A stretch of DNA of 43,033 nucleotides, from NCBI GenBank assembly GCA_002633005.1, contig NMRA01000782.1, positions 1 through 43,033 on the forward strand, given 5' to 3'. Both the position numbers and the translations under genes were made by a program. The notes under the pieces were generated by a model. It ran no database searches, was not told where the DNA came from, and worked only from the letters and a program-made list of their open reading frames with translations. Position 1 is the stretch's first letter; each line of letters starts with the position of its first letter. The stretch comes from Phoronis australis (lineage: Eukaryota; Animalia; Phoronida). Below, piece after piece: positions 9,900-43,033 of the stretch.

Positions 9900-10260
9900 T
9901 TCCTTTTGCCAAACTATTTTGACAGGACTCGAAATGTCGATTTCCTGGACATACCGGTAATGGTTGGCAGGTGCAATTCAGTGTCAACAAACAGCTCGCC
10001 TTGCAGCTCCTGGGAAAGTAAGTAAACATGTCTGTATGCATTAAATGTATCTCTTTTTCTGTTTGTTGGGCATTCGTGAGACTGCTTTCCAGTGAATCTC
10101 TTGGTACTGAATCGCAATTTCGAGATTTCACGAGAATGATTGTCCTTGGCATTGCAAATGAATTATATGTACGTATCCATTGTAACCCGCTTTTGGAAAA
10201 TATATGTAAAGCCAATGAAAATAGTAATTCTCCCTCCAAAACTTAGTCTCCTGGCACACA
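9900..10260 (-). pseudogene. Possible P-element/THAP9-like transposase remnant
   Basis: Frameshifted peptide FSLALHIFSK(S/A)GYN..IRT..FAMP....KSRNCDSVP.FTGK resembles the P-type transposase segment FALTLHFYSPKAY.Y.R...LP....R......PGF. Catalytic core not clearly seen. Confidence 0.4.
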
Positions 10261-11733
10261 TACTCAAGGCTGGAAAGGTGGGAAAGGTTTGTTAAATTGA
10301 TACTGCATTCTGAAGTTAATTTCATCGGATCATTACAGTCAGTATACAGCAACTTCATTTAATGTTTTCGCGATGGAATTTTCATTCGAGTGTGTGCAGC
10401 AGTTCCTAACACTCGCGTTCATAATATAAACTCAGTTGATTTTATAATCTTTAAGGAGCTTTGAGTTGTGAAGTTGACAAATTCTTTACACTGGGAGACA
10501 TGTACATAAGCAAAATGGAACCAACAACCTGTTCTGAAGAAAGTTGTAATCGATACTGTGTTCCAGTTTCAAGTGCACGACAAAAGTGAAACTATTTCTC
10601 CTCCCCGGTGGTATATTCAGGTAAAAGTCAAAGCCTTGGAATTTTGACGGAATTTCCAAGAGATTTTGCCATGTCATAAACTGGCATACGATGCTTACAG
10701 TAAGCAGCAACTTTCAATGCATTGTTCTCTAAGTTCAGTGTATGTATTACAATTAAAAGAAAATTGACTCATTTTCAGTTATGTTGTGAAAAACGGGTCC
10801 ACACAAGCCGCCTGGTCAATATCCAAGTGTCTCTAGACTTCATTGAACAGGAAACTTGCCATAGTCATAATCTCTGCACAGGGAATACTTAGACTTAGAT
10901 AACTTTACAATCTTAAATTCCAAGAATTAAACGAGATACGTTGTCGTAAGCCTTCCAAGCTTTACCAACCAATTTTTAGGAATGAATTTGACAACATGAG
11001 TCTATGTACAGGCTCAAAGGTTTGACGTTCAAAATCAAGAGTTGGGAATTTGTATACACAAAATATCGTGTTTAGGCTTGTGCGATAACTGATTAGTAAT
11101 GAACGGTCTTATGCTAGCCGTACACGACGCCTCAACTGACGCGCGCCCGGTTAATGAGCTGCGGTGACTTCACGGCACACCCAACACGCACACGGTGTTC
11201 CTCAATCCGGAACATCTCGGGTATTTACGTAGACCATTTATTCAATCGGAGGACAATGTTGTCTGCATATGTTCGGGCTTTAGTTACAAGAAAAGTTACA
11301 TGATTTTCAAATTGGCCAAAAACATGTAAGGCAAATAACTGAAACATACAAAACATCTTGTCGTCAACCAACAGCATAAACGTTGTCATGTGAATTTCAG
11401 TTGTTTAATGGGCTTAACCTTATTTCATTTCCAATATTTGTGTCAGCATGCACTTAGCAACTTAGAACAAATAAAGTCGTTTTATATGACGTCTTATTTT
11501 TTGATGTTTTCTAGACGATTCCGCAAAATAAGCGGCAAAGAATGGCTTTTGACTTAGCCGCCTGTTATTAGTTTGCTTCCAAATGTTCGTCTTATTTATC
11601 TCAGTTGTCTATACCACACTGCCTCCCCATATCAATCTTTTTAACGGATGTCTTACTTTCAGACTCTGGCACTTTACACGTGATGAAACAATTGCCAGAA
11701 AATTTCAAATGTAGGATAATCAAAAATCTAACA

Positions 11734-11905
11734 ATGGCTGAACTCACCCCCTCGCTGGATGACTACAGAGCAGAAGGCCCAGTTGAAACTCAAGAACCTA
11801 AATGGCAACGCGCGGATACCACTGGTGAAGAACTGACACATGCGCCAACGAACAACAGAAAGGAGGAAGAGACGAATGAGGATGATACATGTAACACATC
11901 GCAAG
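11734..11905 (+). CDS. RHIM/TRADD-N-like/NTase-like/TPR gene, first coding exon (acidic low-complexity N-terminus)
   Basis: Acceptor TTTCAG ending 11662, ACAATGG Kozak-like start at 11734, MAELTPSLDDYRAEGP...TCNTSQ, phase-1 donor G|GTAGAG. An upstream in-frame ATG at 11684 (MKQLP) is an alternative start. Confidence 0.65.
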
Positions 11906-12750: not shown

Positions 12751-12924
12751 CGCAATTCCTAGAGTCTACAGACAGAGCGTGTGAACAAGGGCTTCCCGAT
12801 GAGAGCAGTGGGCCGAATCCAGAAACAAACAAAATGCATCGTCTCAGTATTTTTGAGAACGTGGTCAATCTCCAGATAGGAAACAACAATACTATTAATG
12901 AGTGTCAGAGGGAACAGGGATATA
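12751..12924 (+). CDS. Coding exon 2 with RHIM-like motif 1
   Basis: Acceptor TTTCAG| (in-frame alternative TTCCTAG| starting 12763), donor A|GTGAGT, phase 1-1. Peptide ...ESTDRACEQGLPDESSGPNPETNKMHRLSIFENVVNLQIGNNNTINECQREQGY. Confidence 0.8.
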
Positions 12925-13115
12925 GTGAGTACATGTGTGCACAATTTACAGGAGAGAAAAGATATTACCAAGCCATTTAATTAATTAACGTGTGTTAATA
13001 ATCTCACGTCCTCATAAAATACACGTATTTTTAGATTCGTAGGTATTAGCATTGGGTAAAGTTTCAGCTCTTGGTATAAACAAGGCTCGCACAGTTCTAA
13101 TTTAACCAGTTATGT

Positions 13116-14588
13116 CACGTGTCCCGAAAAGTGACAATTAATTGACCAAATTCGTTAAAATTTTTCTAAATGTATCTTTGGTTTGTCATCAATAAGCTTA
13201 CAAAGTACATGTATCTCCGTGAAATATAAGAAATTATGGAAGAACTGTTAAATTCAAACCAGCGGGACGAAGAATGCAATATCACTGTGACTTTCATCCT
13301 GTTCATGCTCTACTCTCACTAAAAAAACTTCCTGTCTGGATCTCAAGCCTACTGTTTTTTATTGTCAGATCAGTTCTGTTCAATACTCTGGTTTGTTAGG
13401 ATGCCTTTGAGTGAAAGTGATAAATTTACAATTAAAACCTTGTCTCAAGAAGAAAGGGTGGAACGGATAAAGGATCGTAAGGGAGTTCCCAGGAAAAGGG
13501 TGGAGTCATGTGACTGTATTGCTAAAATACGCAACACAGGGTCTGTTGGCTTAATACTGGCAGTGGAAGACCCAAGACTGCATGTTCGAAAGAAAACTAG
13601 GATCGTGTCGAGGAACTAATTCAATCCCTGGAGGACAACCCGTGGAATTGCAAATCTTTGAGACAAGTCGCAAGGGATTTCCAATTGAGCAAGTCTTCTG
13701 TGCAAGGAATGGGGAAAACACTGGAGTTAAAACCCTTCAAAAGTATATGTGTATCCTGGAGAAATCTAAACTTTAGAAGGAACAGAAAAATTCGATGCTG
13801 CTAGTTGCATGACCTCTATTCAGCGACCGATGTGAAAGGAATCATTTTCACTGATGAAAAGGACTTCACGCTAGAAATCACTAAAACCACCAAAACTGTC
13901 GTATTTATGGGAAACAAAAACGAGACATTCAGCCTTGTCGACTCTATCATGAAACTTCCAGATTTCTCAAAAAGTAATGGTTTCCGTATCTTGGGAAGGA
14001 AAAACAAATATTCATTTTATTGACGCTGATACAGCCAAAATTAACAAACAACGTTACATGCAGTTATTGGACGAAAATCTTCCTGATAGCAAGCAACTTT
14101 ATCCTGGAAACAATTACGAGTCTCAGCAAGATGGGTCTCCGTCACACACGAGAAAGATAGCCCAGGCTCATCTGGACGAAGCCACACCAAAATTCATCAA
14201 AAAGGATAAGTGGACTCAGCTTAGTCCTGACTGCAATCCAATTGACTGAAGGAGAAAGTTTACCGGGGAATGAGAGGAAAACTGACTGAGCAGGAGATGG
14301 ACGAAATACGGAAAAGCATTCCTAGTTGGTAAAAAAGCTCCGTTTAGTCGTGACGGAGGCCACAATGACCGTGGACTGAAATAAGCGAGCTTCCCTTTGA
14401 TATTTTATTTTTTGGCCTGATGTTTTTAATTTGTCAGTACTCGCATAATTGGACACAGATCTCCTTGATGGACATCATTTGTTGATAATGTCATTAGGTT
14501 CATCTTTAAGAAATTTGAAAAAAAAACGATTCATCCGTTGCTGTGAAATTTGTTGTTAAAAACTGGCTCACTTTTTGGGACGCCTAAT
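13116..14588 (+). mobile_element. Decayed Tc1/mariner-superfamily transposon, maT (DD37D) type
   Basis: Imperfect TIRs GTGTCCCGAAAAGTGA / TCACTTTTTGGGACGC. Frameshifted transposase with IIFTDEKDF, QQDGSPSH and SPDCNPID; 37 residues counted between the second and third catalytic D. Confidence 0.9.
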
Positions 14589-16193
14589 ATGGGTTGCGAT
14601 TTCGACGCCCAGGCCTCACCCTCCTTACTTTAACAAAATGAGTGCCCCCGGGAGTAGACGTTGGTGGGTTGATCACACGCTACATCACTGACGAACGAAA
14701 GGGTTCAGCAGTCGTATTAGAAATCTCAAAACATGTTAAATTAATAACCCAACGAACTTCCCAAACACGTTGTTGCGCCATTCAGACGGACTGCAATATG
14801 TGTTTTTCCATCAAGCCTCGCAACGTGTGAATTCACTTTCGATTTTTCAACTGATGCCCTCTGAAGAGCCGGTAACCTCGTCTAAACACACTCTGCTTAA
14901 AATTTTAGCCTCCGCGCATTATCGACCCCTCCAACTGCTTAAACGTCAACTTTGGCATATCTTTCAACGACTTTGACTACTTTTTCACCATTGTTTACAT
15001 TAACAGACTAAGCAGATGCATGTGTAGCCTCGTTTTGAAATCCGGTAGTCGGAAGTATGCATGCTTTTGATAATCTCCTGATAGATTAGCCAAAATAAAA
15101 ACGAGTTTTTGGATATACGTTCAATACAATAATCAATGCTTCCTCGAAAACGATCGGTGAAGTCATCTCACAAAGCGAACAGATATTTTAGTTTCTTATT
15201 CTTCCTCAAATGAACCATGTTGGGTCTGCTCCGCTCAGTGGGTCGTTACCTCCAACCAACTTCAATTGTTGGAGAGGGTGCTTTGAGAACCGTTGCACCC
15301 TTTACGGGTGTGGGTTTTGGAAAATTCACATTTCCACCAAGTCATATAGATACTAGAGTAATCAGGCGATGGGCATTTATTCGGGTGAATAAATAAATGC
15401 CAAAAAACATCAATTGCAACGTGTGGAACTTACTGTAAAGCAACTTTCTCAATGTTACATGCGGAGCCGCCTAACTCCTTCCGCGGGGGATTAACGACTG
15501 TCTCAAACGAGTGTCCCATGTCACTTAAGCGCCAAGCCATGCGCTTTCTGACCAACTGTTTTGCCTCACCAATATAGTCATGCAACCCTCAGCGTGATGA
15601 TGTCCGTCGAGTCGTGTATCACATTTCGTGCCATTGTGACGAATTTGGAAATTCGTATACGTTGTCTTTGTTGCAAGTTTAACGCTTTACAACCCAAAAA
15701 TAACCAACAGGGTTCCCAGCCAAACGCCTGGATGGCAGGTTTAAAGTAGATTAGACACTCAACTGGGGTCTAGCAACATAAGGCTTTTGATTTTTGTCTG
15801 ACAAATTTATTTGTTTAATAAGTTGCTCTACCACCCAAATAATCCAGCATTTTCCAACATGTTGAAGACCGTGGAAATCAGTTTTTATATAATTATGCTT
15901 CCAACTTTACAAGTTGAACAAATTTTATCGTCCTGCTCATTCAAGGCTCATATCAAGAAAAATAGCGCGGTCTAGTTACATGTAATTATATGATTGAGAT
16001 TTGAGGTGAGTTATACATATAAAATTCAATTCCGTGCGCAACTCTCAATCATACACTCAATGCGTATGAACCACAAAATCTAATGTACATGTTAAAACAA
16101 AAAATATTTCTCATTTCTCATATATGCACGGTACACACCAAAAAGACAAAGACCCCGAATTTGCCGTCGTGATTGTCAAATTCATTGTTTCAG

Positions 16194-16268
16194 GGGTCTC
16201 TCTCACGACTCAGAAACGATGGGAAATTACAGGAAAGTTAATAAAGTGGCGAATACTGACGGCAGACG
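16194..16268 (+). CDS. Possible additional 75-nt symmetric exon
   Basis: TTGTTTCAG| acceptor and G|GTATTT donor, length divisible by 3, open in phase 1 (VSLTTQKRWEITGKLIKWRILTAD). Weak donor and no motif support; not counted in the 1444-aa model. Confidence 0.3.
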
Positions 16269-16829
16269 GTATTTTGTCTAATTACTCTGGCCTTGTACTG
16301 CAAGAATAGCAAAACCAAGCGTTTAAAAAAATCAGACGTATAAACATGTTTTTCGTATGTACAATTCGTTGATTGTCCGTCTGCTTTTTGTGCGATTTTT
16401 TGTGGTTCAGTTGCTTGATTCTTGTTCGTACATACTATGTTGTGGTTCGATTGTTCGAGCGTGTGATTCTGGCATGCGCATGCGTGTCTACCCAGCAAAA
16501 CCGAAACTTGAATTAGGTCTTGTTTTATTCTCACGTAATTTCCCTTGTCATGATACCTTTATATTTCCGGTATCGGCAAGAAAATAGAGACCACCAGCGA
16601 CCACAGAAAATCCTTAAAGCTTTATTGTGGTTGGCCAAACGTAAAACTGCAAATTTTGAAATGGCACATGTATATATTGAGAGATGGTAACGGAAACGGG
16701 ACGCTAATGACGCTGAAGAATACTGTTCGATCGATTTCATGGGCGCAGCATGCCTAATTCGATTTTTGTATTCTAGTCTGATAAACAGGGAGACGTATAG
16801 GTTTAATTATGCATACAATTATATTTTAG

Positions 16830-17108
16830 ATGAACTAAAAAACGAGGATTGTAGCGGACAATCTTTTAAAGGTACTTCAAGCTCGTCTAGTTGTGCAGCT
16901 TTTTGTGACGTCGCTTATGTGGGTAACGCAACGAACGTCCAGCTAGGAAACGATAACGTTATGAATATTGCTGGTCCAACAAACAAAGAAGACATAGAAA
17001 ACGTTAGGGCCGAACATGAACAAAAGGAATGTTCAATCCCGGAGAAACCGTCTGGCCATGTACAGGGTGTGTCACCAGACGGAAGCACAGAAAGCACAAT
17101 CAATGAAG
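16830..17108 (+). CDS. Coding exon 3 with RHIM-like motif 2
   Basis: TATTTTAG| acceptor, G|GTAATG donor, 279 nt, phase 1-1; contains DVAYVGNATNVQLGNDNVMNI. Confidence 0.85.
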
Positions 17109-17999: not shown

Positions 18000-18080
18000 G
18001 TGCCAGTGTTGGTTGTACTGCTGAGCCCGAACCAACAAACCATGCCACATACAATAATTTGCTAGAACGAACACGTGAAG
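18000..18080 (+). CDS. Coding exon 4 (linker)
   Basis: Strong polypyrimidine tract plus TTTCAG|, G|GTAATG donor, 81 nt, phase 1-1, GASVGCTAEPEPTNHATYNNLLERTRE. Confidence 0.8.
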
Positions 18081-18731: not shown

Positions 18732-18890
18732 CCTGGCGCGCGTTCAGTAGACGCTAGGACCTACGCTAGGACCTAGCTAAAACCTAGTCACAGTCACGTG
18801 TTCTCATTTAAAATACACGGCAATATCTCACGTAATCTCTCGAAGTCTTGCTTTTTAGCGAGGTCCTAGCGTTACTGAACGGGAGGCTGG
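18732..18890. mobile_element. Short MITE, family B copy 2
   Basis: TIR CGTTCAGTAGACGCTAGGACCT / AGGTCCTAGCGTTACTGAACG; related to 6311-6463. Confidence 0.8.
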
Positions 18891-19718: not shown

Positions 19719-19769
19719 CCGCTAATCATTTGGGGAACAGAATGTTGGATTTGATGCAGTACCTTGATA
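19719..19769 (+). CDS. Coding exon 5 (51-nt mini-exon)
   Basis: TTTTACTTTTGCAG| acceptor, A|GTGAGT donor, phase 1-1, AANHLGNRMLDLMQYLD. Confidence 0.7.
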
Positions 19770-26366: not shown

Positions 26367-26702
26367 GAAACTGCTGTCCTGCAAAGAGACATTCTGACGA
26401 AGGAAGAATGCAGACTGTGGAAAGGACGATAGTAGAGCAGCAAAATGCAGAGAACTCTCCTCTTCGAAATTCTATTATTAATCTGTCGCATGGACATAGC
26501 CGCGTTATTATTGTTCAACTTGCGTGCATCGAAATAACCTTTGAATGCACGAGTTTGGAAGATGTCAAAGAACTTAAAAGGCAACTTCTGAGTGGTAGTT
26601 TAGATGGACAACTTAAAAGAGCTTTCATGACCGAAGAAGTAATGAAGTTGTCCGAGGGTGTCGATTTCGATATCAGCATCGAAGTTGTTGATAATCTTAC
26701 AA
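26367..26702 (+). CDS. Coding exon 6, TRADD-N-like domain
   Basis: CTAG| acceptor (weak pyrimidine tract), A|GTAAGT donor, 336 nt, phase 1-1. RVIIVQLACIEITFECTSLEDVKELKRQLLSGSLDGQLKRAFMTEEVMKLSEGVDFDISIEV matches the TRADD-N-like pattern (hxhxCxSLExLxxL...SGxLxxxL...hTEE) that I recall from invertebrate proteins. Confidence 0.75.
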
Positions 26703-27265
26703 GTAAGTACAATGACTTCATGGTCCTTGTGTAGACGGCAAACATGTGATGCAAATAGCTGGTTAATTCAAATATTTTGATAACCATTACGGGGCTTCAT
26801 TTCCAACAGTTTTAGAGATTGTACACGCTCTCAAACTCATATTTTTATAATTGGCTGCCATGTACTCATAAAACGAAATTGTCTCTAACGTAGCTCTAGG
26901 ATAAAATTCTCTACATACTAACTAACCATAACTTAACTGATAATGAGATTAGCCTACTTTCTAAGCGACTTAACTTTTGTCCTACCAAAACCTGAATTAC
27001 TCATTGTTATTTCTACTTTTGCGAGACGTCTTAGGTGTGCAGAACATTTTGACAGTCCCACCAAAGATGAAAATGAGAAATCCACCTTAGAAATTACCCC
27101 TTTCACGAAAAAAAGCAATTGGAATCCACCCAAAAGTCAAAACCATGCCCTCTTACGTTACACAGAACAAATTACTAATGATGTCATGAATTACAAAAAG
27201 CATAACTACAAAAATATAATATTACTAAATTCGAAAATGATGCCCTCACAATTCTCGTTAAAAAC

Positions 27266-27524
27266 TAGATAAACATTCGTCATTTCTTGTCAACCTTTAT
27301 TGAAAGAATGATGGAGACCTAGAAGTACAAGTAAAGAGAATGCTTACTGTATAGCTCAAGGGTAATGACAATGTACTATAAACGGGATATAAAGTGAATA
27401 CACATGGAAAAGGTGATAATCCCTACCTCTATGTAATATCAACGTGTAGTCACTAAGACAATGGTGGGAAGCTAGCTACAGAGACACCTAGTGGTTATAG
27501 TATGAACTATTATATAATTCTCTA
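27266..27524 (-). repeat. 3' LTR
   Basis: Direct repeat of 30015-30273; TAGA...TCTA ends; adjoins the PPT (CCTCCCCCT on +). Confidence 0.95.
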
Positions 27525-27569
27525 CCTCCCCCTAAGTTATGGAGGGACGCAATAACTAAGAGTAATGTA

Positions 27570-29571
27570 TTATGAAGTAACAAAATCGACCAGCCAGGCC
27601 GGTTTGCGACGTTCCCGAGTAGACCGTCGAGGGGCCGGGGGTTCTGCAGTAGGGCAGGGCTCGGAAGAGCTCAGGATAGGCGGAGGATCTGTAGTGGTCA
27701 CGTTAGGTTCTGGGTCGTGTGAATGATCGTCCGGAAGCTGTGCGTCGACGCTCCCGCGCGACAGTGAGTTATCAGGTGTGAGGGGTGGACCAGCGTTGCG
27801 AGTGACCAGCATGTCAGGGAGTGCAGGCCTGGCTTGGACGAGTGGCCGGGCAGGAATGTACTTCCGCAGAAACCGTCTGTTGCGGAGAGTGACACGTCCA
27901 GAGCCATGAACTCGCACGACGTATTGGTCGAACTGTCTCACCTCTATCACTAGGCCCGTCTTGTCCCAGTGGAGTGGCTCCGGTCCGGTTTGATTTTGGA
28001 TGCGGACGAAATCACCGACAATGAGGGGACGAAGACGTTTGGTGTGCTCAGAGAGCTTCTCCGAGACCTTCATATGTCGGTGGCGCAAAGCGGCCTCGCA
28101 CAGATCCAGGGTGTCAGTCCAGGTGTCGTGGTGCTTGTAGCGACCGGGCAATATCGGAATAAAATCTTTTATAGGACGACCGAAGACACATAGAGCTGGT
28201 GACAATTTCGTGTCTTTATCTGGGGTGTTACGGTACTGTAACATCGCCCGCTGAAAGGCATCCGTGTCGAGTTCGCCGTTTGGTCCAGTGTTGTCCGTAA
28301 TGAGTCGCTTGATTGTTTTCACGCCAATCTCGGCTCGACAGTTGCTGTGGGGGAAAGCGACGGAGGAAACACGATGGTGGACACCCCAGGACGAGAGTAG
28401 GTTCGTGGTAGCAGAGGACGTGAACTCTGGGCCGCCATCACTGGATAACTCGTCGGGTATGCCGAAAGTGACGAAACAACGGCGTAAACTGTCCACGAGA
28501 CCTTTGGACCCCGAGTGAGCGCGCTCAACAATAGGCCAGTTTGAGTAACGATCGACGATAACGAGGTAATGGACACCTTTATATGTGAAGAAGTCAGCAC
28601 ATACACACTGAAACGGGTAGACGGGTAAAGTGGGTGGTGTGGGAGGGGCATGTGGCTGGGATGGTGACATGCGATTGCAATGGTGACAACCCCGACGTCT
28701 CTCAGCAATGTCGTTAGTTATCCCTGGCCAGAAGACGGAAGCGTCAGCCCGAGCAGTCATAGAGGATATACCTTGGTGGGCAGAGTGGAGCGAATCCATG
28801 ATAGATGGCCGTAAGGCAGGAGGAATGATGACGCGATCTTTATAGGTGATGACGCCATCTATGGTGGACAGGTAGTCGCGAAACTGGTGGTAAGGCCGTA
28901 ACGCCTCGGGTAAGGCTTCTCGTTGGTCGGGCATGCCAGATTCGATGATGCCTAAGAGGGTATGTAGGTCCTCGTCACTGCTGGTAGCCTCACGGACACG
29001 GTCCCATGTTACACATTTAAGGGAGGTAAGGGCGCAAGTAGCTGTAATGTGGACACCGCGGTCAATATCAGTATCGATGGAAGCGACGTCGTCAGGGAGG
29101 GGAAGCTGCCCCGTTCTGCCGGTGGGGTGTCTGGAGAGACAATCTGCCGCCTTGTGACGCACGCCGGGGACGTGAACTATGGTGAAGCGGTATCGTAAGG
29201 TCTTCTCTTTGAGGTTGCGTAGGCGGGTGTTTGGGATATCCTCTAAAGCTCTGTCGGATAAGACTTTGACAAGTGGTTTGTGGTCGACGGCGACCGTTAG
29301 GTCGGTGCATCCCAACACAAAGAATCGAGCCTTGTCCAAGGAGTCAGCAACAGCCAGGGCCTCGCCTTCGATTGGGGCATATCGGGTTTCGGCAGAATGG
29401 GTGAACCTGCTGCCGACGAGTGTCACCTTCCAACCGGATGGACAACAGAATGGCCTCGTCTTGGAGCAATGGCAGTGTTTCTGCAGTAACCAGAAGCCGA
29501 TTCCTGTCTTGGACCAATCGGTTGCCAGGCAAGTTGGTTTAGTCTTGTCAAAGATGCGCACACCTTCCTCG
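27570..29571 (-). CDS. pol: Gypsy pol (RNase H and integrase), 5' part in the assembly gap
   Basis: [21 protein letters not shown] and VDHKPL (RNase H); H-x3-H...CHHC zinc finger; CADFF, SDGGP and RAE with D-35-E spacing; uninterrupted 663-aa frame. Confidence 0.95.
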
Positions 29572-29720
29572 NNNNNNNNNNNNNNNNNNNNNNNNNNNNN
29601 NNNNNNNNNNNNNNNNNNNNNNNNNNNNNNNNNNNNNNNNNNNNNNNNNNNNNNNNNNNNNNNNNNNNNNNNNNNNNNNNNNNNNNNNNNNNNNNNNNNN
29701 NNNNNNNNNNNNNNNNNNNN

Positions 29721-29962
29721 TTGGTCGCCGTGACGTAATCGGACCAGCGGGAAAGGAAATATTGCCAGTTCTCACTCGTCCCAGCCGAGGCGATGTGAGG
29801 CCGTTTGACCTTTTCAGCAGGCACAGCATGAGGGTGGGGGCTACCAGGGACTGGTGACGTGTGACTTGTGGCGTGAGTTGTCAGTAGAGCGGCCACAATA
29901 GCGGGGTCGACGTCAGGCGTCATGTAGGGGCATCCCTCAATAGGGCACTGAATGATCGGCAT
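29721..29962 (-). CDS. gag: Gypsy gag N-terminus
   Basis: ATG about 40 nt after the PBS; MPIIQCPIEGCPY...LLTTHATSH...AEKVKRP...WQYFLSRWSDY; runs into the N gap. Confidence 0.85.
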
Positions 29963-30001
29963 TGCGACGCTTGAGAAGTCGGTAGAAGTAGGTCACTGAA
30001 T

Positions 30002-30014
30002 TAGGTCTCCATCA
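30002..30014 (-). promoter_or_regulatory. Primer-binding site complementary to the element's own LTR
   Basis: Element-sense TGATGGAGACCTA directly follows the 5' LTR and is the exact reverse complement of element-sense TAGGTCTCCATCA at 30058-30070 inside the LTR. Confidence 0.8.
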
Positions 30015-30273
30015 TAGATAAACATTCGTCATTTCTTGTCAACCTTTATTGAAAGAATGATGGAGACCTAGAAGTACAAGTAAAGAGAATGCTTACTGTA
30101 TAGCTCAAGGGTAATGACAATGTACTATAAACGGGATATAAAGTGAATACACATGGAAAAGGTGATAATCCCTACCTCTATGTAATATCAACGTGTAGTC
30201 ACTAAGACAATGGTGGGAAGCTAGCTACAGAGACACCTAGTGGTTATAGTATGAACTATTATATAATTCTCTA
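30015..30273 (-). repeat. 5' LTR
   Basis: Identical to 27266-27524; AATAAA on the - strand at about 30045-30050. Confidence 0.95.
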
Positions 30274-30570
30274 AAAACAAAGAAATCGTAATCAAACCAG
30301 CTGATACAGGATCAGCTGTTGTTAGAATGGACAAGCACTGACGAGGCTCTCCGGTAATTAAGGACACTACATACTACAAACTTTTAGATAATAACCCCAA
30401 CACAAAGCATATCAATATTATAACTAAAACTATTTTGAATGCTTTCCACTGTGGTCATATTGACAAAGACACCAAAAACTATGACCTCATTCCTAATAAT
30501 GCTCAACCTAGTCGGTTTTATCGCCTTCCTAAAATCCACAGAGAAGGTAATCCTTGACGCCCGATTATAG

Positions 30571-31127
30571 GCAGCACATGCTCGTGTTTTCTTTGCTTGT
30601 GATGTATGCAGGGAGCAGAGGGTACAGCTTCTCCAGACATTCGAAAAATACCCCGATATTTACAAAAAAAATATTCTGAAATTCCGCAATTGTACAACAA
30701 TTTTTTTTTTCTATATGAATGTCAAGAACTCAACCCAAATGAAAATAAGTACATATTCAAAATAGTTCAAAAATTTCTTTATAATATTAAATCTCTTTGT
30801 GTAAGTAGATATACACAAAACGTACCGAGCGCGGCGTACCTTCGGTCTCAGTCGATACGCGGAATAATGTCTCGTGTGATATTATTTCATGTTCGCCACG
30901 CTCGGTATGTTTTGTGTATGTATACACGTGTATGAAAATGATTTATTTTTACATTCGTAATCATATGTCATTGTAACCTTATCATCAGTTATTTTTAATT
31001 TGTGTGTATGTGTGAAATGATTTAATATAGATTTCTTTGTATATTTTAACCCAGATATAATGCCTCTTGGCGCTTTCTGGGTTATGCATGTTCATTGTAT
31101 TGAAGATTTCGTAATAAACATTAAAAA
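30571..31127 (+). mobile_element. 5'-truncated LINE 3' end (CR1/L2-group-like) inserted in the Penelope remnant
   Basis: RVFFAC...QR..L...FLYECQELNPNENKYIFKIVQKFL ORF2 C-terminal pattern, AT-rich 3' UTR ending AATAAACATTAAAAA, and ATAG repeated on both sides. It interrupts Penelope RPII|ASNNCPTEK. Confidence 0.7.
30811..30919. mobile_element. Palindromic MITE, family C copy 1 (internally deleted)
   Basis: ATACACAAAACGTACCGAGCGCGGCG / CGCCACGCTCGGTATGTTTTGTGTAT inverted termini. Confidence 0.85.
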
Positions 31128-32065
31128 ATAGCCAGCAACAACTGCCCTACTGAAAAATTCACAATTTGACGAGTACCATCTTCAGCAATATGTCTCCACT
31201 CTTCCTTTGTATGTTAAAGATACTAATCGTTTTCTCAATATAATTAAAACCGTCAACGATTTACCTAAAATGTCTTCCTAGTTATTCTTGATGTCAAAAG
31301 CTTATACACTACTATTCCTCAATATAAAGGCATAGAAAACTGGACCAAATTTCTTAGTCAACGTAATAATCCTAATGTACCTACATCTTTTATTCGCTCT
31401 CTTCTTGAACATGTACTTACCATGAATCTTTTCACCTTCAATAATAAACATTATCTCCAAATATTAGACACAGTTACATGTATGGGCACTAGAGTTGCCC
31501 CTAACCTTTTTATTCACCTTTGTATTTACCTCCCGCACTACTTCAAGAGTGACCTCTGACATGGAAAGTTTAAAAGGTAGGTCATTGGCGACTCGACGTC
31601 GTTAGCCGGCTCGATCACCAAACTGTCGGAAAATAGTTTAAGGTAATACAGTTATATCAGTGTAAATAACGCTCAACATACAATCAGGTCTCAATCGTAA
31701 CATCTGCAACAGGACTGTTAATTATATGACAGTCCTGTCTCAGTTTTCACTTGCTAAATATTTTATCGTCTGCAACTCAAGCGCCGATTCCTCGGTAACT
31801 ACAATATCAAATTGTTGTTATTTTTCTCTTTTCAGGAGATATTACAACTTCAATGAAAAGTTACCCTTGTTTTCATCTTTGTCATCTCTTTTCAAGTAAT
31901 AAATCGTCATATTTAAAACTGTTTCTTTTACTAGAGAAAACGTGCAGCCTAACGCGCAAGTACATACTTATAGGATGTGGTGCGCCACGTGAACAGTCTG
32001 AGTGAAGTATTATAAAAATCTGCTGAAAAAATGAAAGAAACTTAGGAATTCGAAGCGTATGGGAT

Positions 32066-32200
32066 AAATACAAAACGTACCTCGATTGGCGTACGTGAAG
32101 TAATATCCCACTAGACATTATTCCGTGTTTCGGTCGATACGCGTCATAATGTCTCGTAGGATATCACTTCATGTTCGCCACTCTCGGTACGTTTTGTGTA
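32066..32200. mobile_element. Palindromic MITE, family C copy 2
   Basis: ACAAAACGTACC...GGTACGTTTTGT; shares GTCGATACGCG..ATAATGTCTCGT..GATAT.A.TTCATGTTCGCCAC with 30811-30919. Confidence 0.85.
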
Positions 32201-32246
32201 AATATCCGAAAAATTCCGTTGATCCATTATTGTTGTTTTATTTACC

Positions 32247-32327
32247 TATATATATATATATATACATATACATATACACATATATATGTATACATATACA
32301 TATACACACACATATATATATATATAT

Positions 32328-32415
<88 letters not shown>

Positions 32416-32418
32416 CAC
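32247..32418. repeat. Compound (TA)n/(CA)n microsatellite
   Basis: Directly visible dinucleotide runs. Confidence 0.98.
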
Positions 32419-32830
32419 ATTTCGTCAAACTATAGTATCCTTAACAGGATCTGGATTGCCCCTTTTAATTTCAGATTTATTTTCTACGTTATTCTACAAA
32501 TGATGTATGCTTATTGCATTTTGCTTTGTATATTTGCTCAAAATAAGTCCGTCTCGGGAAGAATAAACCGTGACCTTTTTGTCTAACGGTGTAGTGAAGT
32601 AAACTTTCACTTGTTGTGTCTCTCTTATCTGGGAAGCATAAATTCTTACAGCATGTGGGCGAGACGAGCTAAGTGCTTAGCCGATTGCTTTCGGTAATCA
32701 CTAATTGCATTAACTGTCAACAGCAAATTTTTTTTCTCCCTGACACAATCTAACCATGTGTATTACATTTACTCTATTCACTACGAACGTAAGTTACAGG
32801 TCAGCCAGTATTTCGCTCGCTGTGTTTTAG

Positions 32831-32953
32831 TTAACCTTGACGAAATTGTGACCAAAGCAAAAGAAATACAACAAGGAATTGCGAAGTTGCATGAGAATCG
32901 AGGGAAGTTGAAGGACCTATTGCCTAAACAAGGGAAAATTGACTCATACACGG
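32831..32953 (+). CDS. Coding exon 7 (coiled-coil-like)
   Basis: GTTTTAG| acceptor, G|GTAAGT donor, 123 nt, phase 1-1, NLDEIVTKAKEIQQGIAKLHENRGKLKDLLPKQGKIDSYT. Confidence 0.85.
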
Positions 32954-33710: not shown

Positions 33711-33815
33711 CTGATCAACTTAAGCAAGTTTCGGAGACAACGGAGAAATTGGAGAGTGATTACAAGAAACTTACAGAAATTATACAAAAGGAAGAAATAA
33801 AACAGAGACCCGGAA
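33711..33815 (+). CDS. Coding exon 8 (coiled-coil-like)
   Basis: GTTTTTTTAG| acceptor, A|GTATGT donor, 105 nt, phase 1-1, ADQLKQVSETTEKLESDYKKLTEIIQKEEIKQRPG. Confidence 0.85.
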
Positions 33816-34527: not shown

Positions 34528-34632
34528 GAAAATCTTCAGTTGATTACAGTGCCGAGAGTAACTCTAGGAAAGAAAATATTCAGTTAATAGCACGAGTGAA
34601 TCTTATTGTAAAGAACGACTTTGTGGAAGCAG
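34528..34632 (+). CDS. Coding exon 9
   Basis: TTTATGTTTGCAG| acceptor, G|GTTAGT donor, 105 nt, phase 1-1, KSSVDYSAESNSRKENIQLIARVNLIVKNDFVEA. Confidence 0.8.
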
Positions 34633-35443: not shown

Positions 35444-38352
35444 ATCGACAACTTGAAAGGTTGGAGGCGAGGGAAGCAGAGTTGGCGGCATCACTCAGAG
35501 ATCGTTCTGCGACTGGAGGATCGTCATCAGTATGTGAAATACTTCAGCAACTGGGAGATGTTTACAAAGAACGAGGTTTGCTGACTAAGTCAACTCAACA
35601 CTTCGCAACAGCTTCTGCATTATATAACGCGGCTTTCTTCCGTGCAAAAGAAGCTGATTCTATTCAGAATCTGGAAATGCTATTGAGACAAAATGAAACC
35701 GCGTTCTGCAAAATTCTGTCTATATCAAATGGTACGCTCCCAGTTGACTTCAGGTCAACCATTACTGACAAGTTAGAGACACTCAGACACGGCGTAACCA
35801 GAGAGAGTAAACGGTTACTCGACAACTTTGCGGAAAATCTTAAATTTGATGCACCAAACGATGAAAGAATTGAGGTAGAAAAAACGTTTGTGATCGAGAG
35901 CAGAAAGCTGTCTCAACGTGTAAGCAATGAAATACCATCTTTGTGTAAGGAATTCTTTTCAAAAAGTTGCGAAATACTGGGTCCACCACCTCACGATTAT
36001 GCTGTCATTGCCTTTGGGTCCTTGACAAGGGGCGATGTTACACCGTGTTCAGGTAGGCCTATTAAACTGGGAATTCTTTGTGAAAACGGTTGCAGTGATG
36101 TCGAGTATTTTAAAAACATGATGAATCTTGTCCACATGTTTGGCCATAATATGGGCGAAACTGATGTTAGTAATTTGAAAATCAAATCAGTTTCACCAGG
36201 TGGCGTTACAACTTCCGGATTCTCGCTTGACAGTTCGTCTCCTTATTCTGACGTGATAGTGCAGGAAAGAAATTTATTAGTCGCGACCCCCGCCCAAATG
36301 GCAGAGATACTTGGCTATGGCTCATCGTCATCAAGTGGTCAGGAGTTCACTGATGTCCTTCAAATCCATGGTAGCGCTGGTGGCGATTCACTATTTAAGG
36401 AATTTGAGTTCATTAAATCTAAAAAATCAGAAAGCGGAAACTGGAATCTCCTGTCGGAAATTCAAAATTGCAAAGAAGGTATGTTTGCCATAAGCCTTTT
36501 TAAACCACTCTTTCGTCTGGAAAACAACAACGTTTGGGAAATTCTTGATGAAATGAGATCCAAGGCAATATTATCAGAGGAAGCCATGCACAATTTACAA
36601 GTAGCGTTATCGGTAAGCGCGCTCTTCAGACTGCTGGGACAGAACTGTGACGGCAAACAGAATGAATGGTACTCTGTAAGCCAGCTCTTATCATTTCTTG
36701 CAAGCAGTAAATCCGACTACGGAGAAGTGCCAAAATACAGCAAATACAATCCTGTCATTATCAGATACTGTTGTACAGCTTTGCCCTTTTTTGCTTTTTT
36801 GTGCAAACAGGGTCCTGATTTTAAGCAGGACACTGAAATCAAAAAACAGAAGTTCTGCGATGAGTTTCTATTAAAAATGGGTGGGGTACTCATATTGTCA
36901 CAGGTGAGTGGAGGCAAAAGTGAGCACATTATTGAAGCGTATCTTAAATCCTTAAGTGTCGCAGATGAGGCTAGTAGTGGTATTGTGGAGGAAAAAGCAT
37001 TGGAATGGTTGAACGAAATTTCAACTCTGGCTGACCGTTTGATAGAAAGTAGAGGTACCACTGCACAGGACACGGCAGGCATTGGGCTCTCAAGCACTAA
37101 TGATGATGCGGGGTGTCATATATTTGCACCATGTTTGGGCATTATAGGTCAAATGTACAGTGAAATGGGTAAGCACGAATTGGCCTTGAAGTACTATCAA
37201 CAATCACTGACTTTCTGGAAAAGACTTTATGGTGAACGCAATAGGCAAGAAGTTGTTGCCTGTCTCAGTAGCATCGGATGTGCACTCGTGCAATTGGGCA
37301 ATTACAACCTGGCCCTAAAGTTTCTTCAGGATTGTTTAGATATGCAGAGGAGGATCAGTGGGATCAGAGATGACAGCCGTATTGCTTCATGTTTAAATAA
37401 CTTGGGGAACGCGTTCACAGGCAAGGGCGATTATGAATCCGCTGAGAGATGTTACACGGACTCGTTGAGTATGATGAAACGACTTCATGGAGACAAAAAT
37501 CGAGCTGATATGGCGTCATGCTTGTGCAACATGGGTAACTTGTGTAAAAAGTTGGGCAAGCATGAGATAGCCATGCATTACCTTCAGAACTCGTTGAGTT
37601 TAATGCGAAGGACGTACGGTGAAGATCATCCAAAAACTGCATTGACATTGGATAGTATTGGAAGTGTACACAATGCTAAGGGCGAATACCAAGTTGCATT
37701 GGGATTTTTTGAAAATTCTTTTGCAATGAAGAAGAGAGTACTTGGAGATGTTGAAGATTTCGGCATTGCAGCATCTATAAATGACATAGGTGGTATGTAC
37801 TATAAAATGGGAAAATACAATGATGCTTTAACATATCTTAAACAATCGATGAGTATTTTAGAGAATATACTTAAAAAAAAGGATCACCCTGACATCGCGC
37901 ATAGTTTGAGTAACATAGGAATTGTGTATAGCACAATGAATCAAAACCAACAAGCTTTGCGATGTTTTCAAAAATCATTGGATATGATGAGGAAGGTCTA
38001 TCATGATGCAGATCATCCCGATATTGCGCCATGTTTGAATAATATTGGAAATGTATACAGTAAAATGGAGAATTACCAAAGCGCCCTGGAGTATTATAGG
38101 TATGCACTGAAGATCTGGCAGAAGGTCTATGGAAATGATTATCATCCTGACATAGTCAGGTGCCTGCACAACATGTCGATTATGTGTTCACAACTCAACG
38201 ATCATGTGCAAGCCCAGCGGTATAATTACGACTCGCTCCAGGTTAGGACATTACTTGAGTCTCGAGGACATAAGGTAGATGTTTCTTCAGGGCTGGCGAA
38301 GGGTAATTTGAATGTAGGTTCTTTCTCAAGTATTTTCCAACTTTCATGTTAA
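35444..38352 (+). CDS. Large terminal exon: degenerate DUF294/GlnD-like nucleotidyltransferase region plus nine TPR repeats
   Basis: TTTCAG| phase-1 acceptor just after an in-frame TGA, so the TTG 'start' in the ORF track is probably not real. LGDVYKE...ASALYNAA, LGPPPHDYAVIAFGSLTRGDVTPCS and LSEEAMHNLQVALSVSALFRL motifs; 42-43 aa repeats of the AxxLNNIGxxY...HPDI type from about 37126. Confidence 0.93.
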
Positions 38353-41300
38353 ACCAAATTGGACATCTTCTAAGGTACTGGTGGTGTTAGTACTACTTGG
38401 GCCATACATTCGAAGTCATACAAATCCTTCAATGATGTACTGTACAGATTCAAGTGCATTATTCACCATCCTTGTTTTGTAGTATGTTAATGGTATTATA
38501 CTGTGTTGAAAAAATTATTTGGTGATGAAAACCCGGTAGCCTAGCTGATCGGAAAAGTTTGTTCTCGATTTTAATCATTTACGTGTGCGTGTACATGTTC
38601 ACGTACGTTGCTTTTTATCTTTTTAGACAATTGGTCGCACGCGAGTTAAAAAAACGACTCGGCGATATTCATGATGTTTGGTTTAGGAGTTACCGGTACA
38701 TGTACGTCTTTTTGTTAGTGGTTTATTTTTCAATGGAGACATCGTATTACAAGGTCTTGCCTGGCGACAAGAAAAACATACTACGAACAGAATTGATGGC
38801 TTGGATAGCATAGGAAAATGTGAAAGTAATTTTCAGCTTTGCAATACACGTGACATTCTTAGCGTTGTTTTCAGTAGTACATGTACGGAGTTATTGGCAG
38901 AACTGCGTCTGTTTAATGAATGCATTACTCTTCAACTTGGTGAGACTTGTTGCAAAACATAGTTTTCTTGTCAAAACATCCACCAAGTGTATAAAGTATG
39001 GACTTTACTCTTATAAAATTGGCTACTGTTTAATCAACTCGTAATAAGGTTCATGCGAATTCACCTTTCTTACTTAATACCTTCAAGGCAGTGTTTTCGA
39101 TAGCCAGCCAGCTAGCTGTATGAAGACTGTCGTGAAAATATAGCTAGGTACCACTCTTCCGTAGTTGTACATAAATATACAACTTTTGTGGGTAAAAACG
39201 TGGTAAGATAAAATCTGACACGAAATTAGTGTCATTAAAAACTACAGTCTTCCTTGAGTAAACTGAATTATTTAACTGTGTTGGAAAAAATGGCGTTCTA
39301 CCGTTATACTGCTGCTAAAGTTATGGACGGAACTTTAGCGACGGCTTTCGGCGCCATGAAATATTGTGTCACCTATTGGCCAGTTTCTTTTTTCGCCGAT
39401 TTTAAATCAACCGTTCTTCTTTCACGAGGTATATTTAGTATACAGCTTTGTACCGAGGCTAACGTTAGCTTTGTATTGGTTTGCGTGAATATAATTCACT
39501 TCTACTTAGCTTTTCATTATAAACCTTGATTGTTTTTTTCCTGATTATAGTTGTACATACCGTTCTCCAGGAAGTCACCTGGTGGCGCTTGCTACAAATT
39601 TAAATATTTACTGTTTTAATGAGACATAATATCTTTAAGACCAAACATATTGGAAGTTTTAATCCAGGCTTTGATTATTAAGTTTAAACTACTTGGATGA
39701 CTAGATAACTCTTGACATTACAACTGGCTTTCTGTGTGTGAATTTGACAATTGACGATGATATACATCTATATCCATGTATCTGTCCAATCGAGTGGCTT
39801 TAACATATTTTTGTGACCATTTTGCCGTATGTAGATGTTTGATCAATAAATAGTTGTGGTTAATATTTTACAATTTTGCATGTACATGTACATCTTGCGT
39901 TAGTCCGTAACAAAATCAAATTCCTTTATCTTTTCAAAATTCTCTTCGTCGCGTTTATACACATGAAACAAACCAAAAAGATACAATAAAACGTGCCGAT
40001 AGTGACAAGCGGTTTTCCACCGAAACCGCATTTAATTTGAGATCTTAAAGTTACGATTTCGTTTACATTCAACAATTTAATGAAAGAACAAAAACATTGC
40101 CGTTAATTGCAAACGAATATTAGGCAATTTTAACTCTTTTAGATTCGTTTGTCACTTCAAATCAAATATAGTGCTCGTCCTAAAATAGGGGCTGGTGCGC
40201 GCAAAACCGGAAATATGTGACACAATTTCTCATTTCGTCATGCGTTCCGCGATGTGCATAGCTGGCAGACAAGGTGCGATATAAATAATCCTACACTCGT
40301 CTCAGCTTTATGACGTGGGAAAAACCTCTTGAAAATTTGGTTCAAATTCATCAATTCATCGGCTTTTATTTTCTCACATGAACTGTAAAATACGATTTTC
40401 TGCAGAAAAACAAAGTGTCGCCAGTCATAAAATGTAGAAAAATATGTATCCTATTGCGACACATAATAAAACCAAAGATAAAACCTTGAAGAACGACTGA
40501 CTTTCAAGCAAACGAGTTCAAAACAATTTCAAATATTTTTGCAAGAAAGTGTAACTGAATGGGCAATTCAAAGTGAATATTCGTTGTGTTGATGACAACA
40601 ATCCTACATACTGTACAAAGTTGTTTTTTATAGCAATGTATATCAAGATGTATAAGAGTTAAATCGTCACCGAATACAAAATAGGCGATTGAACATGCCT
40701 TTCAATTCCACAAATGTCGCCGTTTTGTCTGTGCCGCTGGCGACGAGACCAACGGTACTTTTGAGCATTTTAATCACTTAATAATTAACCTCTGCGGGAC
40801 TAAAGTCTGATGAAAACAGTTGAATGACACAGAATAGTAGGTAAAGCTATGTCTCACTAAATTTCACTGTAAAATATGGGTAAAAATTATTTATAAACAG
40901 CTTTAAACTCGTAACTTATGCTGCTGTTGTCCAAGCTGGCTGACCCGATCCAAACAATGTGACCCAAATTTCTCCACAAAAAGTGTTATAACTTGGTACT
41001 GCTTCACCCGATTTTGATAATTTTCTCGTTTTTGTTGGGGTGCATTATCTTTCCGATGATATTGAAGAATTTCTTTAAAACGAAAAAATGGTTCGACCAC
41101 TTATTTTGTATTTCATCGTAGACTTGAAAGCCCGGCATCATTAGAGGAGAATCTGTGCTCAGACACAACCAGCCCGTGGTGTATTGTCACAACCTCCCAC
41201 TACACAGCGTGTGTTCTTCTTTAAATGCCAAGGCCAAGCTATGATGTTCAAATTTGCAAGAAAATACTGGAACTTTTGACATTCATCAATAAATAAATAC

Positions 41301-41755: not shown

Positions 41756-43033
41756 GATGGGGGGGGGGGNGTTAGTCTGGCGGTTTGCACTTCCGGAGGC
41801 ACTCCTCAGAGTAGTGCTGCCTCACTCATCATTTCCAACATGATTATGCCGGATGATATTGCTGCTCTAAACCTTTGGTGCAATAAATAAAAACGAGGCG
41901 TCGTATCGTACCGGTTATCTGAAACGTTACAAAAGAAACAGTCTAAGTTATGGGGACTGGTTAAACTACACGAACTATACGATCACGATAGACTATCGTT
42001 ACACCAAGTACATAATGTTGTGGTGCCACCTATCAGTTATGACGATTTGTTAAATCACTGTAGTTTAGTCTCATTTTTTGTCAATATACCAACATCAAGT
42101 GTCTGCTTCAATATAGTATTTAATTCGCTTATAATTGTGTGTTTCTGATCCCTACACTGGTGACCTCGAACAGTGAACACTTACAATGGCAGAGGGACAT
42201 AGTTATACAAAGCTTGTTACTGACCTCGCCTCAACTCTCCAGACGCTTGCAATGCAAACAACTCAGGTAAACGCGGTATCCATCAGGTTGTCAGACTTTT
42301 GGACGAAATCGCCCGAAGTTTGGTTTGCCAAAGTCGAGGCTCAGTTTGGAACAAAAGGGATTGTACAAGATCAGACAAACTATGATTATGTGGTGAGTGC
42401 CCTTGATGTCACCACAGCCGACGAGGTTCAGGCTATACTCCTCCACCCACCACTCACAAACAAGTAAAACGCATTGAAGTCCGCGCTCATCAACGCTTTT
42501 GGAAAGTCCCAGGCGCAGAAGGACTCTGAGCTTTTGAACCTCAATGGCCTGGGTGACAAACGTCCCACCGCTCTGATGAGACGTATCAACGCTCTCAATG
42601 AAGATCCCCAGACTTTAAAACGTGCTTTGTTCCTAACGAACCTGCCTGCTGACGTTCGCACTATCCTGGCGGGCCACAGCATTAATAGCATAGAGGACCT
42701 TGCTACGACCGCGGACCGTATCTGGGAGGCACGTACTGCCGGAGTGCAACAAGTCTCTATGCCTACCACCAGTCAGACAACGTTTTCGGGTTTTATGATG
42801 ACAACGCCGAGTCCACGTCCGCTTCGGTGGACGTGGTTTCTGCCGATAAGCGCTTCCGACGCCGTTCCCGTTCCAAGCACGGTGACGCCAGCCCCCTTAT
42901 GGGTTCCTCCACCGTATGCTTCTACCATGTGAAGTTTGGGCCCGAGGCTCGTCGATGCCAGCCTGGCTGCAAGTTTGCGTCACTGATACCCAAGAAAAAC
43001 AACCAGGGAAACGCCACAGCCGGCCGTTGAACG
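41756..43033 (+). mobile_element. CsRN1-clade Gypsy retrotransposon, 5' portion (LTR, PBS, gag)
   Basis: LTR end ...CCCTACA at 42156 and PBS TGGTGACC at 42158 (complementary to the tRNA-Trp 3' end), followed by gag. The LTR start is uncertain. Confidence 0.85.
42186..43030 (+). pseudogene. gag: Disrupted gag (CsRN1 type)
   Basis: RLSDFWTKSPEVWFAKVEAQF, LGDKRPTALMRRI, LFLTNLP and the Cx2Hx9Cx3C knuckle CFYHVKFGPEARRCQPGC. Premature TAA at 42465-42467 and a frameshift near 42790. Confidence 0.9.

Follow-up and report, generated by a model that had tools for sequence, protein, structure and literature searches.

In mammals, RHIM amyloids drive both NF-kB signalling and necroptosis; their ancestry has been traced to fungal prion-forming domains. 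The core of the motif is the tetrad (V/I)-Q-(V/I/L/C)-G, and in both RIPK1 and RIPK3 an Asn is located five residues ahead of the tetrad Gln (N535/Q540 and N454/Q459, respectively) (PMC9444067). The tetrad of TRIF is VQLG and is required for TRIF fibrils (PMC9182532). LQIG is a natural variant of the RIPK3 tetrad; most of the human RIPK3 tetrad variants tested activated NF-kB, with TQIG and VQSG the only ones named as inactive, and all variants supported ZBP1-dependent death (PMC12119088). Among invertebrates, Kajava et al. (2014; PMC4262963) described a large set of RHIM proteins in Branchiostoma, with immune-type architectures in which RHIMs occupy the positions where CARD-like domains usually sit, and noted that further invertebrates have subsets of these families and that RHIMs can be arrayed in tandem, two or three at a time. 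RIPK1-like RHIM proteins are present in lancelets, Lingula and zebra mussel (PMC12119088).

Here we describe a locus in a 43,033-nt contig of the phoronid Phoronis australis (NMRA01000782.1; the entire contig is hereafter referred to as the window) that encodes two RHIM-like motifs in consecutive exons. The transcribed peptide at 16910-16969 (motif 2) matches known RHIM cores and, judging from its sequence, is probably a motif of homotypic amyloid-type assembly in the N-terminal part of a TPR protein with a nucleotidyltransferase-like domain. Its tetrad is the same as that of TRIF, and the Asn-to-Gln spacing of RIPK1 and RIPK3 is common to this motif and the upstream one (motif 1), whereas motif 1 begins with Leu. 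The Asn-rich C-terminal flank of both motifs resembles those of RIPK3 (VQVGDNNY) and RIPK1 (IQIGNHNYM). ZBP1 also carries tandem RHIMs, as does the gene model of this locus; however, unlike RIPK1, RIPK3, TRIF and ZBP1, the predicted protein is devoid of kinase, death, TIR and Z-alpha domains. Given that neither Z-alpha nor TIR has a Pfam match in any of the exons or in 149 open reading frames (ORFs) of the window, the protein is not a relative of ZBP1 or TRIF. The cRHIMs of arthropods (PGRP-LC/LE, IMD, Pirk and shrimp SRB2) are likewise RHIM-like amyloid motifs of invertebrate innate immunity, but their consensus is divergent (VxxG), whereas the motifs described here fit the vertebrate-type tetrad (PMC4262963; PMC13506858). 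With respect to the order of parts, the protein resembles the amyloid-signalling receptors with TPR, WD or ANK repeats, in which a short amyloid-type motif is likewise N-terminal, and with which it shares the two copies and the flexible linker; in place of the NACHT or NB-ARC ATPase centre of those receptors, it contains a GlnE/DrrA-like nucleotidyltransferase domain, and no partner gene is known.

The RHIM-like motif at 16910-16969

Motif 2 (VAYVGNATNVQLGNDNVMNI, plus strand, translation) is encoded in exon 16830-17108 (plus strand, 279 nt, phase 1-1), the single open frame of this segment, with the VQLG tetrad at 16937-16948 and an Asn five residues ahead of the tetrad Gln (N-A-T-N-V-Q). The exon ends at a GAAG/gtaatg donor (17108) that is joined to 18000 in 4 reads of run X6 and 7 reads of run X7, and its start was placed at 16830 from the polypyrimidine-AG context of the acceptor (tattttag/A) and the single open frame. 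The RNA evidence used throughout comes from raw-read runs with the same species label, of which X6 and X7 express the locus and X8 does not. Motif 2 is spanned by 2-5 RNA reads per run, with no differences. The sequence-only reading had placed a RHIM-like motif with a VQLG core at this position, and the translation, the open exon and the covering RNA reads all bear this out.

A 224-nt contig from a further run, X5 (presumed to be RNA), which represents either an allele or a paralogue, spans 16878-17095 with 10 differences. Seven of these are listed by position, namely T>K, V>I (which changes VQLG to IQLG), N>S, A>P, P>Q and two synonymous changes; five of the seven alter residues of the flanks or the tetrad, and V>I is the sole listed change in the tetrad. 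The variant tetrad IQLG is still inside the RHIM consensus while the flanks vary, as far as the 7 listed of the 10 differences go. Within the protein, motif 2 forms a less hydrophilic island (residues 151-180, KD 0.05) amid N-terminal sequence that is otherwise acidic and hydrophilic; judged by composition alone, disorder-promoting residues make up 60-73% of the stretch 31-300.

The same reading had pointed to a close likeness to mammalian RHIMs and proposed an HMM scan as a check. The VQLG of motif 2 is also the tetrad of TRIF (PMC9182532), and the RIPK3 chains in the PDB carry the comparable segment IYNCSGVQVGDNNY. In the scan with the Pfam RHIM profile (PF12721), motif 2 was matched, with 17.6 bits (E 0.0028) for a 22-residue peptide, 14.5 bits for the exon and 13.4 bits for the ORF, all under the gathering cut-off of 20, and there was no match to motif 1. 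As a control, we scanned 149 of the 194 stop-to-stop ORFs in the window that reach 60 residues, the 149 being those with 64 residues or more. The RHIM profile matched the motif-2 ORF alone; however, 20 other ORFs showed a below-cut-off match to some family at E<=0.1, so that the Pfam RHIM match by itself is at noise level.

The sub-threshold score brings up the possibility that the motif is a chance look-alike, belonging to an Asn-rich disordered linker that originated in an exon duplication and has no RHIM-type function. Apart from the Pfam score, which does not stand out from those of the junk ORFs of the window, this explanation draws on the composition of the N-terminal 231 residues of the gene model (10% Asn) and on the occurrence of a third such sequence, VQLGNYN (37288-37308), within a TPR helix of the same protein; the latter comes from the TPR consensus, is taken as a chance occurrence and cautions against scans that rely on the motif alone. 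Furthermore, searches for homologous proteins with the motif-2 exon, at longer and near lengths, yielded no match and accordingly no orthologue of the motif exons that would show constraint. In the ESM Atlas, the motif-2 exon reached a top score of 0.79 with no informative cluster.

The statistics of the pattern speak against chance once the flanks are considered. A regular expression for the bare tetrad finds ten matches in the six frames of the window, two of them with Asn-rich flanks (motifs 1 and 2), and for bare [IV]Q[IVLC]G in the six-frame translation, 4 occurrences compare with 3.97 expected, which is the chance level. In contrast, the extended pattern N[IVL]Q[IVL]GN.N, which was written post hoc from the motifs already seen, occurs twice in the window versus 0.0006 expected and was absent from 200 simulated windows. 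The retention of a consensus tetrad in the X5 variant, although five of its 7 listed differences (10 in total) alter the flanks or the tetrad, points in the same direction. So does one of the comparisons with PDB sequences. Searches of the PDB with phmmer gave no matches for either motif exon, and a profile built from the two window motifs produced no significant match, a viral RHIM chain and ribosomal protein S5 sharing the same E of 0.43. When one motif from each of two Branchiostoma proteins (P0024 and P0058, see below) was added, the resulting four-row profile retrieved 14 matches at E<=10 among 177,635 PDB sequences, of which 10 are RHIM fibril chains (five of RIPK1, four of RIPK3 and one of a viral RNR-like protein). 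The top matches are the RIPK1 chains 8ib0_A (E 0.0032) and 9m6m_A (E 0.0036), with RIPK3 chains and the viral one ranking next, so that genuine RHIM cores come first among all PDB sequences, a result that is partly circular because the two Branchiostoma rows were picked with the tetrad regular expression. Together with the tetrad of TRIF, these matches support the proposed likeness to mammalian RHIMs. Taking the two sides together, and with the amphioxus comparison presented below, we regard a chance origin as unlikely, and the evidence from sequence and context supports the assignment of motif 2 to the RHIM class, short of formal Pfam membership.

The tandem motifs and the gene model

Motif 1 (NVVNLQIGNNNTINE) is encoded in exon 12751-12924 (plus strand, 174 nt, phase 1-1), with the tetrad LQIG at 12870-12881, which is outside the strict consensus, and, again, an Asn five residues ahead of the Gln (N-V-V-N-L-Q). 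The acceptor of this exon is observed in the joint 11905>12751 (1 X6 and 3 X7 reads and one X5 contig), and the donor is predicted at ATA/gtgagt. The two motifs are identical at seven aligned positions (N, N, Q, G, N, N, N), are both in the coding frame of consecutive coding exons, and are spaced 54 residues apart in the gene model. A predicted complex of the motif-1 exon with the motif-2 segment scored 0.04, below the mark of 0.34, a result that carries no weight on binding either way. The intron between the motif exons contains a remnant of a mariner/Tc1-like transposase (13555-14249, plus strand; weak HTH matches and a DDE-like tail), over which the sense-strand RNA depth is 2-6; these reads may come from other copies of the element.

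The gene model extends over the plus strand in both directions from the motif exons. Upstream, exon 9922-10017 is either a 5' UTR or a first coding exon; an X5 contig begins at 9922, and the joint 10017>11663 is present in 4 X6 reads and 1 X7 read. The following exon, 11663-11905, has joints on both sides and an open frame with candidate starts (MKQLPENF.. and MAELTPSL..) and an acidic tail. Downstream of motif 2 are the coding exons 18000-18080 (81 nt, phase 1-1, bounded by the joints 17108>18000 and 18080>19719, the latter with 7 X6 and 6 X7 reads) and 19719-19769 (51 nt, phase 1-1, bounded by 18080>19719 and 19769>26367, the latter with 11 X6 and 6 X7 reads and an X5 contig), followed by exon 26367-26702 (336 nt), which encodes a segment of about 110 residues of no known family; its acceptor is observed and its donor is predicted at caa/gtaagt. 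Next come the coding exons 32831-32953 (123 nt, phase 1-1), with an acceptor (ttttag/TT) predicted and picked by phase, 33711-33815 (105 nt) and 34528-34632 (105 nt), the latter two with joints on both sides. The respective joints are 32953>33711 (12 X6 and 11 X7 reads and an X5 contig), 33815>34528 (10 X6 reads, 1 X7 read and an X5 contig) and 34632>35444 (4 X6 and 6 X7 reads). The last coding exon, 35444-38352, encodes a helical region, the nucleotidyltransferase-like domain and TPR_10/TPR_12 repeats and ends with a stop codon at 38350-38352. The first mate of every read on the gene maps to the minus strand, and each of these joints has GT..AG ends when read on the plus strand. Ten exons joined in this way form a single open frame of 1467 codons that ends at 38352, with no internal stop, and in which an acidic N-terminus with both motifs is followed by the GlnE/DrrA-like nucleotidyltransferase domain and the TPR repeats.

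The window also contains several other elements. A short dispersed repeat at 18735-18890 is covered by RNA reads from both strands to a depth of about 40-75 in each of the three runs, X8 included, with hundreds of loose ends leading into unrelated sequence; Rfam and tRNA scans gave no match in the window, this repeat included. The long intron 26702-32831 contains, on the minus strand, the remnant of an LTR-retrotransposon pol gene (27570-29992; RT RNase H, integrase zinc-binding and integrase core), broken by the N run of the window (151 N in the window), and, ahead of exon 32831, a (TA)n/(AC)n/(ATAC)n microsatellite (32247-32412). A high-copy element at 39100-39460, in or just past the 3' UTR, is covered on both strands in all runs and shows many non-canonical and opposite-strand joints. 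Further downstream, the region 42177-43030 (plus strand) matches DUF7041 with E 3.1e-17, and open frames then continue to the end of the window; it is probably another mobile-element gene.

Two links in the model, 12924>16830 and 26702>32831, are placed from canonical sites in matching phase; neither is among the listed joints, and the second is outside both stretches of read mapping. An alternative model, which assigns the motif exons to a short transcript of their own upstream of the TPR gene, turns on these two links, and the sense-strand depth of 0.9-5.7 across intron 12925-16829, which equals or exceeds the exon depth, would fit such a transcript. Nevertheless, reads chain the motif-2 exon to 18000, 19719 and 26367 and the TPR exon back to 32953; the exons share the strand, phase 1 and a similar depth in X6 and X7, with none in X8; the complete model contains no internal stop; and the amphioxus protein P0024 displays the same order of parts as one annotated protein. 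Two separate transcription units thus appear quite improbable, and a single gene, predicted to place both motifs on one protein, is the model that we prefer.

The sequence-only reading had compared the locus with ZBP1, as tandem RHIMs on one sensor. The two motifs in consecutive exons stand; that they reside on one protein is plausible from the gene model with its two predicted links, the role of a sensor is suggested by the TPR and nucleotidyltransferase-like domains, and kinship with ZBP1 is not borne out. The same reading had noted that each motif sits in its own symmetric exon, which is the case, the lengths of 279 and 174 nt both being divisible by 3, and had proposed that splicing could tune the number of RHIMs. 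However, phase 1-1 is common to all eight internal exons, which makes the symmetry gene-wide rather than particular to the motif exons, and none of the 13 joints listed skips a motif exon (11905>16830, 12924>18000 or 11905>18000), at counts of 1-11 reads per joint, a depth at which rare isoforms are possible. The proposal of splicing-tuned RHIM number has no support from these observations.

The nucleotidyltransferase-like TPR protein and its amphioxus relatives

The C-terminal part of the protein consists of TPR repeats (approximately 37100-38310) that are recognized by Pfam above the cut-off (TPR_10, E 4.3e-70 in 8 stretches; TPR_12, E 8.5e-70). In this region, an in-frame skip of 126 nt (37755-37882), equivalent to 42 residues or about one TPR unit, with non-canonical GA..AG ends, was found in 2+4 RNA reads and may represent an allele with a different TPR copy number, a paralogue or a between-repeat artefact. 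The 540 residues preceding the repeats were used as the query for the nucleotidyltransferase-like domain. A HMMER search with this segment detected 438 homologues at E<=1e-3 (best E 1.1e-65, 29-34% identity), and in the ESM Atlas it falls into DUF294+TPR clusters (0.94); a homologous-protein search with the initial 520 residues encoded by this exon returned no match. The Pfam DUF294 profile (PF03445) scores the window protein at 12.2-13.9 bits (E 0.05), under the cut-off of 21, which many of the scanned homologues exceed (P0002, for example, with 80.1 bits). An AF2 model of the 540 residues from a 30-row alignment reached pLDDT 74.9 and pTM 0.77 (without the alignment, pLDDT was 37.3 and the model unusable), and the top four Foldseek hits of this model are all GlnE or DrrA structures, including GlnE 1v4a (E 3.3e-4), DrrA 6yx5_B (6.5e-4) and GlnE 3k7d (2e-3), with E from 3e-4 to 3e-3 but TM-scores of 0.33-0.48. 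On the basis of these homologues and this model, the last exon is predicted to contain a GlnE/GlnD/DrrA-like (DUF294-type) nucleotidyltransferase fold. Alignment with the relatives places the nucleotidyltransferase motif (family form G-S-x9-S-D-L-E) at approximately 36016-36078 on the plus strand. The acidic pair that follows G-S is catalytic in Pol-beta-type transferases; in the window protein, the Asp found in 29/29 relatives and the Glu found in 28/29 are replaced by Gly203 and Lys207, and the motif also carries a two-residue Arg-Pro insertion. On this ground, we predict that the domain is a pseudo-enzyme with no activity. No Walker A motif was found in the window protein.

All 18 homologues that were looked up are Branchiostoma proteins, so that no close orthologue is represented for the organism of the window. 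When 150 listed homologues of the 438 (187,314 residues) were searched for [IVL]Q[IVL]GN[ND]N, two matches were found versus 0.006 expected, both in a single protein of B. floridae, XP_035692194.1 (LOC118426748, hereafter P0024), with VQLGNNN at position 345 and VQIGNNN at position 401. The two motifs are 56 residues apart, compared to 54 in the window protein, and are located N-terminal to DUF294 and TPRs; the Pfam RHIM profile gives 14.3 bits. The nucleotidyltransferase domains shared by the two proteins align with E 1.9e-22 and about 30% identity. Between their N-termini, only the motif is alike, and the score of the likeness is attained by 4 of 500 shuffles. A tandem motif with near-equal spacing in flanks that otherwise do not align is a further argument against a chance origin of the window motifs.

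Other relatives display variations on this architecture. A protein from a Branchiostoma hybrid, XP_078621836.1 (P0058/P0151), combines a RHIM-like IQIGDEN at position 387 with an IRF domain, DUF294/DUF294_C and TPRs, the IRF DNA-binding domain (residues 601-705) being identified with E 1.7e-18. Pfam scans of 34 relatives revealed two in which an N-terminal CARD takes the place of the RHIM-like motif. The tandem motif of P0024 and the CARD alternatives match the description of the Branchiostoma RHIM proteins by Kajava et al. (2014).

P0024 differs from the window protein in possessing a post-RHIM domain with no detectable counterpart in the latter, apart from a weak likeness to exon 26367-26702. 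This exon has no Pfam match; BLASTP against residues 469-523 of P0024, the site of a weak TRADD-like_N match, gave E 0.061, and a profile of the post-RHIM domains of P0024 and P0058 scored it at 2.5 bits, rank 4 among 1073 ORFs of the window. A TRADD-N-like identity of this exon was considered and rejected as unsupported.

The loss of the acidic pair bears on another possible reading, namely that the RHIM-class motifs sit on a regulator or decoy that caps or sequesters RHIM assemblies rather than initiating signalling. There is precedent for RHIM-bearing inhibitors, both cellular, such as Pirk (PMC4262963; PMC13506858), and viral, such as M45 (PMC9444067), and an inactivated domain would not be out of place in such a protein. 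However, the window protein retains a full set of TPRs and the order of domains typical of its family, and P0024, with the same tandem motif, retains both the catalytic Asp and the catalytic Glu. Given these features, a decoy appears unlikely, about to the same extent as a chance look-alike, and an assembly motif on a sensor-like protein is the reading that we prefer.

Possible mode of action and implications

If the assembly motif reading holds, both motifs and the TPR exon would belong to one protein of about 1467 residues in which the TPR end and the dead GlnE/DrrA-like domain might sense a ligand or a partner. Oligomerisation would then draw the N-terminal motifs together, and the two motifs could seed a cross-beta stack, possibly one of two rungs as in HET-s. 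Such a stack might recruit other RHIM proteins, for example, a RIPK1-like kinase, leading to signalling of the NF-kB type or to death signalling.

A more general proposal, which we put forward tentatively and consider less probable than the assignment of the motif itself, is that non-vertebrate animal receptors signal by amyloid templating. Under this proposal, tandem RHIMs would provide a HET-s-like two-rung nucleus on nucleotidyltransferase-TPR proteins, conserved in at least two lineages, as a counterpart of the fungal NWD2/HET-S and bacterial NLR/BASS pairs, with a GlnE/DrrA-type scaffold replacing the STAND ATPase. A literature search found no paper that combines RHIM with DUF294.

By its predicted architecture, the locus adds to the kind of RHIM proteins that Kajava et al. 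(2014; PMC4262963) described. Invertebrate RHIM proteins were predicted in that work and have been little studied in the literature surveyed. The Phoronis locus is an example that is expressed and in which a predicted nucleotidyltransferase-like TPR protein carries two tetrads of the vertebrate type, an arrangement that recurs in a relative from amphioxus. If these motifs nucleate amyloid, the protein would offer a tractable system for the coupling of a repeat-domain sensor to amyloid signalling in animals and for the possible action of tandem RHIMs as a two-rung seed.
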